Virus record (IMG/VR): IMGVR_UViG_3300044814_000017
Coordinates: 6,209-70,208 of that record
Source: a virus
Direction: 5' to 3' (one strand)
Length of the DNA: 64,000 nt
Position numbers and translations under genes: made by a program. The notes under the pieces were generated by a model. That model saw nothing but the letters and a program-made list of their open reading frames with translations, was not told the DNA's origin and did not search any database. Below are positions 10,167 through 15,859 of this stretch, piece after piece; the first letter of the stretch is position 1; each line of letters starts with the position of its first letter.

Positions 10167-11183
10167 ATGGGCGCGAACAGCAAAATAGAATGGTGTGATG
10201 CGACTTTTAACCCTTGGGTGGGCTGCTCGAAAGTCTCGCCGGCATGCGACGGTTGCTTTGCGGAGCATCTGATGGACACGCGTCTTGATCGTGTCGAATG
10301 GGGACAGCGCAAGACGGAAACCACAAAGGCCAGCGTCGGGACGCGCAGTCGCACCTCTGCCGGAAACTGGAAACAGCCGATCAAGTGGAACAAGGAAGCC
10401 GGAATCGCCGGGACGCGCCCGCGCGTATTCTGCGCCAGCCTTGCCGACGTGTTCGACAACCAAGTCCCGCCCGAATGGCGCGCGGACCTGTTTGAGTTGA
10501 TCCGCGTCACGCCGAATCTCGTTTGGCTGTTGCTGACAAAGCGCCCGCAGAACATCGTCAAGATGGTTCATGCGTCAGGCGCCATCGCCGGCAACGGCAC
10601 ACGGTATCTGCCGCGCAACGCCGCGCTCGGCACCACGATTGAAGATCAGACCCGCGCGGACATCAACGTTCCGGCGCTGCTCGATGCGAAGTATAACTGC
10701 TTTCCCGCTTTCGTTTTCGTCTCATGCGAGCCGCTGCTTGGCGCAATCGATCTGAGGCGCATCTGCCTTCTTCCGCAAAAGCCCGGATCAATCCGTGCCG
10801 GCATTCACATCGATGCCCTCAGCGGCCGCTATTGCGAAAGTGGCCTGCGATACACCGGACCATGGGATATCCGCGGTCCCGCGCCGCCGGCGGATGCGCC
10901 AGCCGTTGTTATCGACTGGGTAATTGCTGGCGGCGAAACCGATCAGGGCAAGCACAAGGCGCGGCCGTCTCAAGTCGCGTGGTTTCGCTCCTTGCGCGAT
11001 CAGTGCAAGGCTTCCGGTACAGAATTCCACTTCAAACAATGGGGTGAGTACGGCCCCTCAACCAGTGGCTGCTATTCGCCGGACCTAGATTTTGTGCCGG
11101 TCGAGAGATTTGGCAAAAAGGTAACGGGCAGGATACTCGACAACCGTGAGCACAACGGTTTTCCTGAATTGGCGCACGCATAA
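10167..11183 (+). CDS. Phage Gp37Gp68 (DUF5131) family protein
   Basis: SKIEWCDATFNPWVGCSKVSPACDGCFAE, LLTKRPQN, WVIAGGE, FKQWG. Confidence 0.92.
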   Translation: MGANSKIEWCDATFNPWVGCSKVSPACDGCFAEHLMDTRLDRVEWGQRKTETTKASVGTRSRTSAGNWKQPIKWNKEAGIAGTRPRVFCASLADVFDNQVPPEWRADLFELIRVTPNLVWLLLTKRPQNIVKMVHASGAIAGNGTRYLPRNAALGTTIEDQTRADINVPALLDAKYNCFPAFVFVSCEPLLGAIDLRRICLLPQKPGSIRAGIHIDALSGRYCESGLRYTGPWDIRGPAPPADAPAVVIDWVIAGGETDQGKHKARPSQVAWFRSLRDQCKASGTEFHFKQWGEYGPSTSGCYSPDLDFVPVERFGKKVTGRILDNREHNGFPELAHA

Positions 11184-11539
11184 TGCCAACCCTATCCAAA
11201 AGCGACCACCGTGCCGTAGTTCGCTACGCAATGGACCGAATAGACGAAGCATTGGCGCAAGCATTAATGCAAGATTTTTGCGCTGCAAATGGCATCCTGA
11301 TCCACACCGTTCGGGATGCGAACAATTCGCCATGGGCGATGGATCAGCGTGTCCGGGTGGCGGTATTTCTCCGTAGCAAGCGCATCAAGCATGTCGTGAT
11401 CGCAAAGTGCATGCATCGGCACGTGGATATGATAAAATACTACACAAGTCCGACGCTGCGCCAGCGCAAGCGGGATTATAACCGGCTCAATACCGGACGG
11501 TGGAGGGAGAGTGTCCAGCCCTTGGAGACGCGCCCGTGA
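11183..11539 (+). CDS. Hypothetical protein, possible HTH
   Basis: Coupled by overlaps on both sides; VIAKCMHRHVDMIKYY is HTH-like. Confidence 0.55.
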   Translation: MPTLSKSDHRAVVRYAMDRIDEALAQALMQDFCAANGILIHTVRDANNSPWAMDQRVRVAVFLRSKRIKHVVIAKCMHRHVDMIKYYTSPTLRQRKRDYNRLNTGRWRESVQPLETRP

Positions 11540-12423
11540 ACGTACTAGATTTATTCAGCGGCATTGGAGGATTTAGTCTTGGCCTCGAAAGAGCAGGAAT
11601 GCGAACCGTCGCATTTTGTGAAATTAATCCATTCGCCCGACACGTCATCGCAAAGCATTGGCCAACTGTCCCTTGCTATGATGACATCCGAACCCTCACT
11701 TACGAGCGTCTCGCCGCCAACGCCGCAACTGGCGACATCCAAATTGATGTCATCTGCGGAGGCTTTCCATGCCAAGACGTATCGTTCGCGGGAAGAAGAT
11801 TGGGGCTGGACGGCGAGCGCAGCGGACTATGGTCTGAATACGCCAGACTTATTGGCGAGATTCGACCCAAAATCGTCATCGTGGAAAACACACCAGGCTT
11901 GCTTTCTCTCGGAATGGGAATCGTTCTCGCAGACTTGGCCGCGCTCAGGTATGATGCAGAATGGCATTGCATACCAGCTTGCGCCGTTGGTGCGGATCAT
12001 CTCCGGGATCGCGTCTGGATCATTGCTTGGCCCAGTGAGGCATATGCTTCCAACGTTGACGGTGAAGGGCAATTACAACGTCAAAGGCATGTCAAAAACC
12101 AGCGGAGACGGGCTGGCGACGGTTTTGCGGAGAACGCTTCCGACTCTGGTTGCTCACGATTACCGGGGAGGAGCGAAGCCGGAATCGGCGGAACGCAAAC
12201 AACTAGATACGGCTCGTGGATTAGACTTGCCATCAAGTCTGCGAATGATTTTCCCCGAGAGCACTGGAATCATAAACCCGTGCTGGGCCGAAGGTTACAT
12301 GGGGTTTCCGATGGGAACTATATACATGACTCCCTTGGCTCATTGTAACACTTCGTGACTGCGCGGTACTTGCGTATACGCAGGATTAGCGTATGTTGTG
12401 TCTATCAGAACCGGAGCAAGCAA

Positions 12424-12711
12424 ATGGACAGCCCATGGGATAGACATCAGGAAATTGAGGACATCCCGCTTATTGAGCGCACCTTTCTTGCTCGGTGTCC
12501 GAACGGAAGAATGACGGCGGTCAATCGCTTTGACTACAATCTGTCGATCTGCACAGGCGGCGATAGCTACGTCCAATGCGTCGATACCGGGCATATACAA
12601 TCCAAGCGGCTTACCTTGTTGACGGAAGAAGAACAGGCTGCCTTTGTGGCGCTAAATGACCGACCTACATACGATGACTGGATTATAGAATTGCGCGGGG
12701 CACCCTTGTGA
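12424..12711 (+). CDS. Cassette cargo hypothetical protein
   Basis: GGAG RBS before ATG 12424; GTGA overlap with the next gene. Confidence 0.6.
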   Translation: MDSPWDRHQEIEDIPLIERTFLARCPNGRMTAVNRFDYNLSICTGGDSYVQCVDTGHIQSKRLTLLTEEEQAAFVALNDRPTYDDWIIELRGAPL

Positions 12712-12899
12712 CCGCCACCCAATACAAAGCCACTATAAAGGCGCTGGGCTTGTCCCAGCACCTCGCGGGCGATTGGCTTGGCATCGGCCGGCGAACCTCT
12801 CAGGGCTACGCGCTGGGCGAGTATCCCGTGCCAGAACCGGTGGCCAAGCTGTTGCGGCTTTGTGTGAAGTTGAAACTTAAACCTGCCGACGTGAAATAG
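12708..12899 (+). CDS. Cassette cargo HTH (Xre/Cro-like) protein
   Basis: LGLSQHLAGDWLGIGRRTSQGYALGEYPVP. Confidence 0.8.
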   Translation: MTATQYKATIKALGLSQHLAGDWLGIGRRTSQGYALGEYPVPEPVAKLLRLCVKLKLKPADVK

Positions 12900-12908
12900 G
12901 AGAGATAG

Positions 12909-13085
12909 ATGGCCGAACTCCACCTTGTGGTTGGGAAAGACAGCTACGGCGTACAGCGTGTCTATGGGGAGCATCGATCCCTTGATGTTGCCGAGACGAT
13001 GGCAAAGGAAGAAGCCGCTACTTACGTCAGGTCTAGGCCAGATACCGGCCCGCTATCGCGTTGGGAATTTGAAATTCTGGAATAG
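12909..13085 (+). CDS. Cassette cargo 58-aa protein (not in the ORF track)
   Basis: AGGAG RBS; reads MAELHLVVGKDSYG...WEFEILE*. Confidence 0.6.
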   Translation: MAELHLVVGKDSYGVQRVYGEHRSLDVAETMAKEEAATYVRSRPDTGPLSRWEFEILE

Positions 13086-13089
13086 GTGC

Positions 13090-13227
13090 ATGGGCGACGA
13101 ACGCGACATTATCGAAAAGCTGCTAGACTTCGAGCGTTGCGGTCAAACGGCAGGAACGCGGGTTAGCCTGCGAGAATGCGCGGCTGTCGAGATATTCAGG
13201 CTCAGGCAAGAAGTCGAACGACTTTAG
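13090..13227 (+). CDS. Cassette cargo 45-aa phage-type protein
   Basis: DIIEKL...AAVEIFRLR resembles DIVERL...AADEIERLR of the ORF at 26712. Confidence 0.55.
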   Translation: MGDERDIIEKLLDFERCGQTAGTRVSLRECAAVEIFRLRQEVERL

Positions 13228-13381
13228 CCACAAAGGACGTAAAATGAGCCAAGGGAGTCATGTATATAGTTCCCTTTCCGATAGGCTGGACAGAATTGAA
13301 GCTCTCGGCAATGCCGTCGTCCCGCAAATTCCGGAAATCATCGGGCGGGCAATCATGAAATACAATTCCGCAAAATAATAA

Positions 13382-13409
13382 TTGACATTCCATTTTACCC
13401 AGCTATTCT
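13382..13409 (+). promoter_or_regulatory. Putative sigma70 promoter of the accessory gene array
   Basis: TTGACA-N16-TATTCT. Confidence 0.55.
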
Positions 13410-14371: not shown

Positions 14372-14992
14372 GCCATGGTCGCAGGTTAGGTTTTATGTGG
14401 GGGAGCGCTTTCGGGGCTGGGCTTGCTTTAGCCTTGACTCTGCATTGGGCATTTATTGGAGCGGCGTTTGTAAGCGCATTTGGTGTGGTTGCTTTTAGTC
14501 GCAATGATACGGATGCGCTCCTATGACCCAAGCCGCCATAGCCGCTGCCATAGCCCACAAGGTATACGAGGCAGAGCAGATCAACGCCGCCATGTTAGGC
14601 CACGACCGAGTTGACCGCGCCTTACTTAGTTATGGGGCTTGGACGGAAACATTCGCCCGTGCGTTTGAGGCGGATAGGCCAGCAGTATGGCCGCGCGGAT
14701 GTGAGCCGCAGTAATGCGCAGCGCGATCCTCATAGTTTTAATGGTCATCGCTGTTGGCGCGTCGCTGTTGGTGCATTGTGCGGCATGCGAGCTTCACGTT
14801 TGGGCTGTCGACCGAATGTCCAACGCAGATGAAAAGAAGAAGTATCAAGGTTGGTTTTATCGCTACGCTCAAAAAGTCAGCCGCCCCGTCCTGTGGCTTG
14901 AAAACAAGGGGTGGATTTGATGCCCGATAACCCCCTCCAGCACCATCAGCGAGCCGAAGTAATTATATTTCAGCAACAGAAAGGATAAGATC

Positions 14993-15859
14993 GTGAAAAA
15001 GAGAATTGAGGTTCATTCGCAGGTGGAATTCGACGCCTGCGTAAAACTCGGCAACATCGCCGTTGTGGTCAACTGTAGCGTCGTGGCGTGGGAGAATTCC
15101 AGCGTCGAGGCGTGGGAGAATTCCAGCGTCGTGGCGCGGGGGAATTCCAGCGTCGTGGCGCGGGGGAATTCCAGCGTCGTGGCGCGGGAGAATTCCAGCG
15201 TCGTGGCGTGGGGGAATTCCAGCGTCGTGGCGTGGGAGAATTCCAGCGTCGTGGCGCGGGGGAATTCCAGCGTCGTGGCGCGGGAGAATTCCAGCGTCGT
15301 GGCGTGGGAGAATTCCAGCGTCGAGGCGTGGGGGAATTCCAGCGTCGAGGCGCGGGGGAATGTGTTCGTCCGGCTTTGGTCCGCGCTTTCGATCAAGGCT
15401 TCGCTGCGCGTCGCGATCATGGTGCATGGCACCGCCGCAACGCTTGAAGGCGGCAATCAAATCCAGGCGCTCAATCCGCAGATCGGCTCGGAATGGTGCG
15501 AGTATTTCGAAATTGATCCGGCGACCACGCCGTTCGTGATTCCGGATATCGACGCCGCCATCTTAAAATCCATCGAGGCCAACAAAGCTGCGGGCACCAA
15601 CGGCCTAGATATGGGCAGTTGGCACGGCCAGGAGTGCGATGAAACCAACTGGTGCGACACGACGCATTGCCGCGCTGGCTACGCCATCTGTCTCGCTGGA
15701 AAGGCTGGATTTGAATTGGAGCGCAAAGTTGGGGCTGAAACTGCTGGTAAAATGATCTATGCGGCAAGTCGACCGGACAAACCGCTTCCGGATTTTCACG
15801 CCAGCAATATGCAAGCGATGGAAGATATCATTGCTAGCGCGCGCAATGGCGGTAGTTGA
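14993..15859 (+). CDS. Octapeptide-repeat (beta-solenoid-like) protein with C-terminal Cys/His domain
   Basis: 12 x NSSV(V/E)A(W/R)(E/G); C-terminal LDMGSWH...CDTTHCRAGYA. Confidence 0.85.
   Translation: MKKRIEVHSQVEFDACVKLGNIAVVVNCSVVAWENSSVEAWENSSVVARGNSSVVARGNSSVVARENSSVVAWGNSSVVAWENSSVVARGNSSVVARENSSVVAWENSSVEAWGNSSVEARGNVFVRLWSALSIKASLRVAIMVHGTAATLEGGNQIQALNPQIGSEWCEYFEIDPATTPFVIPDIDAAILKSIEANKAAGTNGLDMGSWHGQECDETNWCDTTHCRAGYAICLAGKAGFELERKVGAETAGKMIYAASRPDKPLPDFHASNMQAMEDIIASARNGGS
15071..15358 (+). repeat. 24-bp coding tandem repeat, 12 units
   Basis: Unit AATTCCAGCGTCG(T/A)GGCG(T/C)GGG(A/G)G; the first unit is divergent. Confidence 0.97.

Follow-up and report, generated by a model that had tools for sequence, protein, structure and literature searches.

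Several kinds of mobile element and one type of phage operon bear on the locus described here. The cassette MIC231, an IS231 derivative of Bacillus cereus, was reportedly introduced by De Palmenaer in 2004, and transporter insertion sequences (tISs) of the IS1595 family are said to have been described by Siguier, Gagnevin and Chandler in 2009. The mycobacteriophage elements MPME1 and MPME2 are about 440 bp long and have a putative transposase gene of their own. MITEs (miniature inverted-repeat transposable elements), MICs (mobile insertion cassettes) and tISs are established categories according to the accessible part of PMC3129680, where the MIC is defined and where the tIS is given as a category introduced for the IS1595 family. 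Aca2, as the accessible part of PMC6765145 describes it, is a helix-turn-helix (HTH) dimer that represses an acr operon by acting on a pair of inverted repeats in the promoter. Here we describe a cassette carried by a soil phage (IMG/VR record IMGVR_UViG_3300044814_000017), which is probably an MIC of the IS1595 family that was moved in trans, inactivated a phage C5 DNA methyltransferase gene and carries a foreign accessory operon as cargo. The stretch analysed, hereafter the window, comprises 64,000 nucleotides, bases 6209–70208 of the 70,208-bp virus record, which has direct terminal repeats and a completeness estimate of 100%.

From tip to tip the element measures 962 bp (12313–13274; Table 1). 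Its inverted-repeat arms (12313–12347 and 13240–13274) are 35 nt long with 97% complementarity (34/35), without a mismatch over the first 32 nt. This 32-mer is present at two places only, in the window as in the whole record, namely 12313–12344 (+) and 13243–13274 (−), and had no match in any of 100 dinucleotide-preserving shuffles. The cargo consists of four tightly packed open reading frames (ORFs) on the + strand. ORF2 begins at a GTG that overlaps the stop codon of ORF1, and ORF1 and ORF3 each have a GGAG motif in front of them. None of the four (45–95 aa) matched a recombinase family in Pfam or PHROG, and the interval 12200–13400 gave no Rfam match at E ≤ 1. The anatomy that the first-pass annotation had described, namely perfect 32-bp terminal inverted repeats (TIRs), an exact 8-bp duplication and four small ORFs free of a recombinase, therefore stands. 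Contigs of sequencing run X1 connect each flank to a TIR at about equal depth (17.5 and 17.8 for the flanks, 19.2 for the element); this run was available as contigs only and may be the source sample, and hence it does not count as independent support. The joint of an empty site (12312–13283) was absent from the X1 contigs, which cannot exclude such a site. Perfect arms and an exact duplication are consistent with a recent insertion and do not amount to a date.

The element lies in a gene that encodes two overlapping frames. Frame 1 matched PF00145 (7.6e-38) and phrog_363 (2.3e-67), and frame 2, nested in the +1 register from 11564, matched phrog_1008 (4.2e-16). In 80 viral relatives (identity up to 71%) the methyltransferase is a single ORF with the unbroken ending HGV(P/S)xR(V/L)DRLxxLGNAVVPQIPEIIGRAIM. 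In the window HGVSD is followed by the element and then by RLDRIEALGNAVVPQIPEIIGRAIM, with zero residues gained or lost relative to these proteins. The frame 1 tail 3′ of the element has a match in 78 of the 80 relatives, and the frame 2 tail FPIGWTELKLSAMPSSRKFRKSSGGQS, which completes YMGFP/IGWT (the slash marking the joint), has one in 24 of them, in the +1 frame. Because the relatives' protein continues across the site unchanged, the element together with one 8-mer copy represents a clean insertion; it truncates both overlapping frames, and both frames are restored on its removal, as had been proposed from the sequence of the window. The right arm also supplies an outward-reading ATG (13244), in frame with the C-terminal piece of the methyltransferase.

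The nested frame extends to the relatives. In the interval from motif VIII to motif X the +1 frame outscores the annotated frame in 74 of the 80 viral relatives (L152–L231), with summed scores of 2153 against 502 bits and aligned stretches that are stop-free; the +1 protein there reads SSWKTHQ…WPRSGMMQNG…LPTLT…NPCWAEGYMGFPIGWT. Dual coding of this methyltransferase gene thus appears, from these alignments, to be widespread in soil phages. The window gene is in this respect like M.EcoHK31I, for which the accessible part of PMC2836561 describes a beta chain, bearing motif IX, that is encoded inside the alpha chain in another frame.

The ends of the cassette belong to the IS1595 family. The first 22 nt of the arm have exact matches in 11 other viral contigs, and a degenerate consensus of the ends was found in at least 138 stretches of bacterial genomes, the carriers listed being mostly soil metagenome-assembled genomes (MAGs) of Alphaproteobacteria, Acidobacteriota, Dehalococcoidia, Planctomycetota, Patescibacteria, Fibrobacterota and others. 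Conservation across the family covers about 23 bp of the end (GGGAATTATATACTTGACTCCCT). All family counts are taken from the matches listed, and the partner end was allowed up to 5 mismatches in pairing; on this basis there are 41 distinct paired elements, and 94 loci were unpaired within the flanking DNA examined. Perfect 8-bp duplications (mean AT content 0.81) flank 28 of the 41 listed elements, while the duplications of 7 differ at one position and those of 6 at four or more. Sizes range from 110 to 2511 bp: 8 elements are MITEs of 110–173 bp, 7 elements of 311–780 bp hold one ORF each and no transposase, and 26 are at least 1098 bp long (20 with a transposase, 2 with transposase remnants, in one case interrupted by an IS630-like element, and 4 without a transposase match), so that the transposase-free elements with ORFs number 11. 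The transposase of the 20 elements is a protein of about 305 aa that matches PF12762 (DDE_Tnp_IS1595) and, in every case, also the PF12760 zinc ribbon, and these elements carry variable passengers. The first 22–23 bp of the window ends are identical or near-identical to the ends of these 20 elements. The IS1595 assignment made in the first-pass annotation is thus upheld by ends shared with PF12762/PF12760 elements that make 8-bp duplications, and the search for the TIR beyond the window located autonomous relatives as well. The conserved end occurs across many phyla, and the elements that bear it grade from MITEs over transposase-free cassettes into insertion sequences (ISs) with passengers. 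The ISNwi1 group, which we take to have ends of the form ggnnatTAT and 8-bp repeats, is presumably matched by GGGAATTAT.

A PF12762 search of the complete phage was negative at E ≤ 1, and therefore the movement of the cassette in trans, already suggested for it, is very probably the mechanism. We propose that an IS1595-type DDE transposase from another copy in the host cell or in a co-resident phage would bind both identical ends, and that the 962-bp unit would enter the C5 DNA methyltransferase gene by an 8-bp staggered cut and truncate its two overlapping frames. Both window ends are of the transposase-distal type: the window's exact 22-mer stands at the transposase-distal end in three transposase-bearing phage copies and equals the right inverted repeat (IRR) of phage-borne L003 and L009. 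Perfect arm identity extends over 32 bp in the window, compared with at most 26 bp in 42 other paired elements, and the inner TTGGCTCATT of the window arms is in no sampled family end. Because of the 32-bp identity and the shared distal type, the arms look like two copies of one progenitor end, recently made or homogenised; by the same comparison, a left inverted repeat (IRL) and an IRR left behind by internal deletion look disfavoured.

Two further observations concern the family ends. Positions 14–16 of the end (window 12326–12328) hold an inward-reading ATG (ATACATGACTCCC), and this end-borne ATG is the start of the longest ORF in several elements of intermediate size and in some transposase genes. 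At L028 (2501–4670) an IS1595-type transposase gene is split by an IS630-like element (DDE_3, 6.9e-33, and HTH_32), a case of nested ISs.

Several relatives of the cassette reside in phages. A 1900-bp element with the duplication TTAATTTT lies in a complete 45.7-kb virus record (L003/L006); its transposase matched PF12762 (6.7e-46) and PF12760 (1.2e-9), and its passenger is PAPS-reductase/SspD-like. A 1703-bp transposase-carrying element lies in a 62.7-kb viral contig (L009) that is 100% identical, over the 5 kb compared and with the IS included, to L036/L037 from a Pseudorhodoplanes sp. MAG bin, which makes Pseudorhodoplanes a possible host lead for the L009 phage. L013 is a 5′-truncated transposase copy (PF12762, 1.3e-48). 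A 678-bp transposase-free element with the duplication CAGAATAG (G004/G001) holds a truncated Mom-like ORF (PF25680, 6.9e-10; phrog_1384, 1.8e-13).

The cargo between TIR pairs was catalogued with a PHROG screen of 40 passenger ORFs, of which 6 were matched and 34 were not. The matches are to a nucleoside deoxyribosyltransferase (L021), phrog_3230/DUF1643 (L067), PAPS reductase (L038 and L003), an HNH endonuclease (L079) and a DNA methyltransferase (L015). If the Mom-like genes carried by G004 and L005 are counted too, the nameable passengers are mostly phage-type genes of DNA modification and nucleotide metabolism. Four of the named carriers, G004, L038, L021 and L067, have the same ends and no transposase, which bears out the earlier suggestion of a cassette family with phage-type genes.

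Solo ends were also seen. The whole records of L005, L007 and L008 were searched for partner ends, and none was found. In L005 (2967–3663) one family end accompanies a Mom gene (PF25680, 4.7e-29), with a 34-nt direct repeat (91% identity) flanking the unit where a second TIR would otherwise lie; the insertion may have been one-ended or mediated by recombination. In L008 (3001–3605; from 4095 onward in G004, and likewise in G001) an unpaired exact end lies directly against the 3′ end of an N6/N4 DNA methyltransferase fragment (PF01555, 5.8e-15), which occupies the place that passengers have beside the distal end of complete elements.

Beyond what the first-pass annotation had noted, the cargo contains a regulatory module that is common to many TIR-free phages. 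Relatives of ORF2 were found at 41 viral and 75 metagenome loci, some contigs being counted in both sets, with 37–92% aa identity (most 56–92%). Two nucleotide blocks are conserved among these 116 loci, one over the leader of about 83 bp (12343/4–12426; up to 53 loci, 72–92% identity) and one over ORF2 (12708–12900; up to 86 loci). The homology begins at the inner boundary of the left TIR and does not extend beyond ORF2, and nothing is common between the blocks. Joints seen in run X2 (from about 12394–12426 to 12709), which covers the window in parts only, are derived from relatives, and the lead that they gave was confirmed on the module loci. The distance from the ATG to ORF2 is 113–717 bp in 41 distinct modules, and this slot holds 1–3 unrelated small ORFs (39–142 aa), often abutting or overlapping each other and ORF2; none of 63 slot ORFs scored above a Pfam cut-off or had a PHROG match. 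In 25 aligned leaders TACGC, TTGCGTATACGC and GCGTAT are invariant and the 7-nt spacers vary, and the two leader dyads, ATACGC-N7-GCGTAT and TACGC-N7-GCGTA, overlap, at the sequence level, the putative −35/−10 hexamers TTGCGT-N16-TATGTT. The leader closes on the GGAG ribosome-binding site, followed by the ORF1 ATG.

No family end was found in the flanks examined of 115 of the 116 ORF2-bearing loci, and ORF1, ORF3 and ORF4 are in none of these loci; conversely, 149 TIR-bearing loci yielded no cargo relatives at meaningful E-values. The phage itself has no second leader, palindrome or ORF2. In one metagenome contig (L339) a family end stands 47 nt after an ORF2-like gene, and such ISs therefore do land next to such modules. 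Nine native loci place the module near tyrosine integrases (4; L233, L239, L241 and L250, in two cases directly upstream of int), Mom-like genes (2), methyltransferases (3) and a queuine tRNA-ribosyltransferase-like gene (1), and these surroundings are, to judge by their predicted genes, temperate-phage accessory regions. Separately, a 48.6-kb phage contig (L235, 1335–3190; L275 is the same) has two leader–slot–ORF2 modules in tandem with different slot genes.

The remaining cargo genes are orphans or nearly so. ORF1 has no Pfam, PHROG or PADLOC match and no relative in viral contigs; one relative was found among 5.8 billion clusters (P0002, 79% identity, encoded on a 75,831-bp contig), and the protein atlas scores of ORF1 were all ≤0.82, in the chance range. 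The 90% cluster of ORF3 has 3 members (P0019 and P0020 among them), and viral contigs gave four 9-residue matches and no real relatives. PADLOC gave no match for any of the four cargo ORFs. The cluster mate of ORF4, P0022, runs 9 aa further (EVERL-RKLVSPPQS) and shares one 4,785-bp contig with the ORF3 relative P0020. ORF4 is shorter than P0022, and therefore the capture boundary cuts its 3′ end. Judged from these comparisons, the cargo is foreign, because it has no second copy in the phage, ORF2 relatives are TIR-free in the flanks examined at 115 of 116 loci, the homology begins at the TIR edge and ORF4 is cut.

Table 1. Coordinates of the cassette, its cargo and the interrupted gene (window positions)
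Feature	Position	Strand	Description
C5 DNA methyltransferase 5′ part, frame 1	11500..12312	+	motifs I–VIII and low-complexity middle
Left target-site duplication	12305..12312	.	8 bp, TTTCCGAT, directly abutting arm
Left terminal inverted repeat	12313..12344	+	32 bp perfect; reaches 12347 with one mismatch
Captured leader	12343..12426	+	TTGCGT (12370–12375), 16-nt spacer, TATGTT (12392–12397), promoter-like
Leader palindrome	12371–12382		TGCGTATACGCA
Leader dyad	12376–12394		ATACGC-N7-GCGTAT
ORF1	12424..12711	+	95 aa, orphan, variable slot of module
ORF2	12708..12899	+	63 aa, GTG start, XRE-type HTH (Aca2/Aca10/MqsA-like)
ORF3	12909..13085	+	58 aa, near-orphan, GGAG ribosome-binding site
ORF4	13090..13227	+	45 aa, 3′-truncated relative to 54-aa cluster mate
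Right terminal inverted repeat	13243..13274	−	perfect copy of left arm
Right target-site duplication	13275..13282	.	TTTCCGAT, identical to left 8-mer
Methyltransferase 3′ parts	13275..13378	+	frame 1 13277–13378 SDRLDRIEALGNAVVPQIPEIIGRAIM; frame 2 13275–13358 FPIGWTEL

ORF2 has the fold of a small HTH protein. Pfam and PHROG gave weak HTH family matches only, PF15731 among the weak ones, and the model built from a 26-sequence alignment has four helices (predicted local distance difference test score 91). A profile search against the PDB returned 7xi5 (Aca10; E 2e-4) and 7ezy (Aca2; 4.8e-4, residues 1–53), followed by further Aca2 entries and then by MqsA (6.5e-3) and Aca1. In the Foldseek comparison the top four chains are Aca2 (template modelling (TM) score 0.80, root-mean-square deviation 1.2–1.6 Å, 22–30% identity), followed by HigA2 (TM 0.74–0.76), MqsA (TM 0.80), Aca1 and Aca10. 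We consider ORF2 reasonably likely to be an autorepressor of the leader: its dimer would bind the leader dyads over the −35/−10 hexamers and autoregulate the operon. The reading that suits the cargo best is that of an accessory operon, captured and self-regulating; it would be a fragment of another temperate phage's accessory region that runs from just upstream of the promoter/operator leader to inside the 3′ end of ORF4. The small orphans among its genes would have accessory roles, perhaps in anti-defence or host takeover. An anti-defence function is suggested because of the operon architecture and the structures nearest to ORF2, and for ORF1, ORF3 or ORF4 we regard such a role as a tentative and somewhat doubtful possibility.

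Several points weigh against parts of this reading. The transposase that would act in trans is represented by autonomous relatives in other phages and many soil MAGs, and the complete phage has none. A 26-mer probe from the left flank had 0 matches in viral contigs, to an empty or an occupied site, and no second copy of the exact cassette was found; the inner 9–10 bp of the 32-bp arms are in no sampled family member. As regards the operator, the left arm of the first dyad deviates in the window (TGCGC in place of TACGC), the hexamers match the sigma-70 consensus at 7/12 positions, the leader promoter went uncalled in a consensus promoter scan, and no co-variation of operator variants with ORF2 variants is visible by eye. 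ORF2 is linked to the Aca family by weak E-values (2e-4 to 3e-3 by sequence, 1.2e-2 or weaker in Foldseek), the HTH subtype also occurs with similar scores in the antitoxins MqsA and HigA2, and no cargo or slot protein matches a known anti-CRISPR, defence or anti-defence family.

A rival account of the cargo, which we hold to be quite conceivable, if the less probable one, is a hitch-hiking regulatory or accessory piece of a temperate phage, that is, a Cro/Cox-like regulator with orphan genes, in a benefit-free selfish insertion that knocked out the methyltransferase. The integrase-adjacent native loci, with the module twice directly upstream of int, would suit such a piece, the cargo proteins have no functional matches, and the truncation of ORF4 fits an arbitrary capture boundary. 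However, what was captured includes a complete promoter/operator and intact ORF1–ORF3 with ribosome-binding sites, and the combination of an operator promoter, hypervariable small genes, a conserved HTH gene and Aca2/Aca10 structures matches anti-defence operons. We continue to favour a captured accessory operon.

A type II toxin–antitoxin pair in reversed order, as in MqsRA or HigBA2, would make ORF1 a toxin, ORF2 its antitoxin and the pair a means of stabilising the cassette. The fold of ORF2 does match the HTH domains of HigA2 and MqsA at the scores given above, the weak PF15731 hit points the same way, and 2 of the 63 slot ORFs showed YjhX_toxin at E about 1e-3, below the cut-off. Yet neither ORF1 nor any of the 63 slot ORFs reached a toxin family cut-off, and ORF2 keeps 70–92% identity downstream of slots with 1–3 unrelated genes, so that it cannot serve every one of them as cognate antitoxin; this conservation next to unrelated genes makes the pairing, in our view, improbable. 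That no transposition took place, the locus being an assembly chimera at the inverted repeat or two solo ends around resident genes, is highly implausible, since the exact 8-bp duplication abuts both arms, the relatives' protein is continuous across the site, flank contigs run into the TIRs at agreeing depths and the cargo has no other copy in the phage, even though the k=31 contig graph of X1 breaks at both arms and leaves the orientation of the element unfixed in those contigs alone. It is just as far-fetched that the element is autonomous, with an unrecognised recombinase among its four small proteins: ORF1, ORF3 and ORF4 have no assignable function, but they are 95, 58 and 45 aa long, ORF2 is a plain four-helix HTH protein found in 115 of 116 loci without such ends, and autonomous members with the same ends use a DDE transposase of about 305 aa.

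Elsewhere in the window, a DUF5131 (Gp37/Gp68-type) gene (10167–11183; PF07505, 4.6e-72) lies upstream of the methyltransferase gene with a 118-aa ORF between them, and positions 14963–15859 hold long ORFs on both strands with short tandem repeats (NSSVVAWENSSVVARGNSSVVAR on +, DAGIPPRHDAGILPRH on −).

Gene-calling pipelines would render this locus as a broken methyltransferase and four hypothetical genes and would overlook the mobile unit, whose passenger operon has the architecture by which anti-defence genes are sought. If the cargo is functional, the ends would provide a cheap handle for harvesting candidate accessory or anti-defence genes from metagenomes, and would also be direct evidence of transposition carrying such genes between phages. 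More broadly, IS1595-type transposases could be a shared vehicle by which ready-to-express cassettes pass between unrelated phages, with a promoter-equipped acr–aca-like anti-defence operon in the window and Mom-like, methyltransferase, PAPS-reductase-like and further DNA-modification genes in its sister elements; we put this forward as speculation that is rather unlikely to hold in full. Were it true, counter-defence repertoires would be reshuffled by transposition and not only by recombination, and this phage would have swapped one anti-restriction device, the methyltransferase, for another. In open-access text we found no report of an IS1595-derived phage cassette, of an IS-borne acr–aca-like operon or of anti-defence cargo on a phage IS or MITE.

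Known systems share parts of this arrangement. The cargo resembles the acrIF8–aca2 operon of phage ZF40, as far as the accessible part of PMC6765145 describes it, in a promoter with two inverted repeats, small variable genes and a downstream HTH gene. It differs in that the upstream genes are not known Acr genes and two more genes follow the HTH gene; moreover, the 63-aa ORF2 lacks the C-terminal dimerisation domain of Aca2. MPME1 and MPME2, in the accessible part of PMC5356059, are likewise small mobile elements scattered in phage genomes, whereas the window cassette has IS1595-type ends, a four-gene cargo and no transposase. With the tISs it shares the end GGGAAyTAT, the 8-bp duplication and passenger genes, and its relatives carry both transposase and passenger; unlike them, the window element lost, or never had, the transposase. 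In build it is like MICs such as MIC231: inverted ends of IS type and a duplicated target flank passenger ORFs, a transposase is lacking, and activation in trans by a cognate transposase is presumed. Compared with MIC231, the window ends are of the IS1595 and not the IS4/IS231 family and both appear to be copies of one end type, the element is phage-resident, and its cargo is a putative promoter-equipped phage operon. The cassette thus joins the established MIC category, in which its setting inside a phage is unusual.

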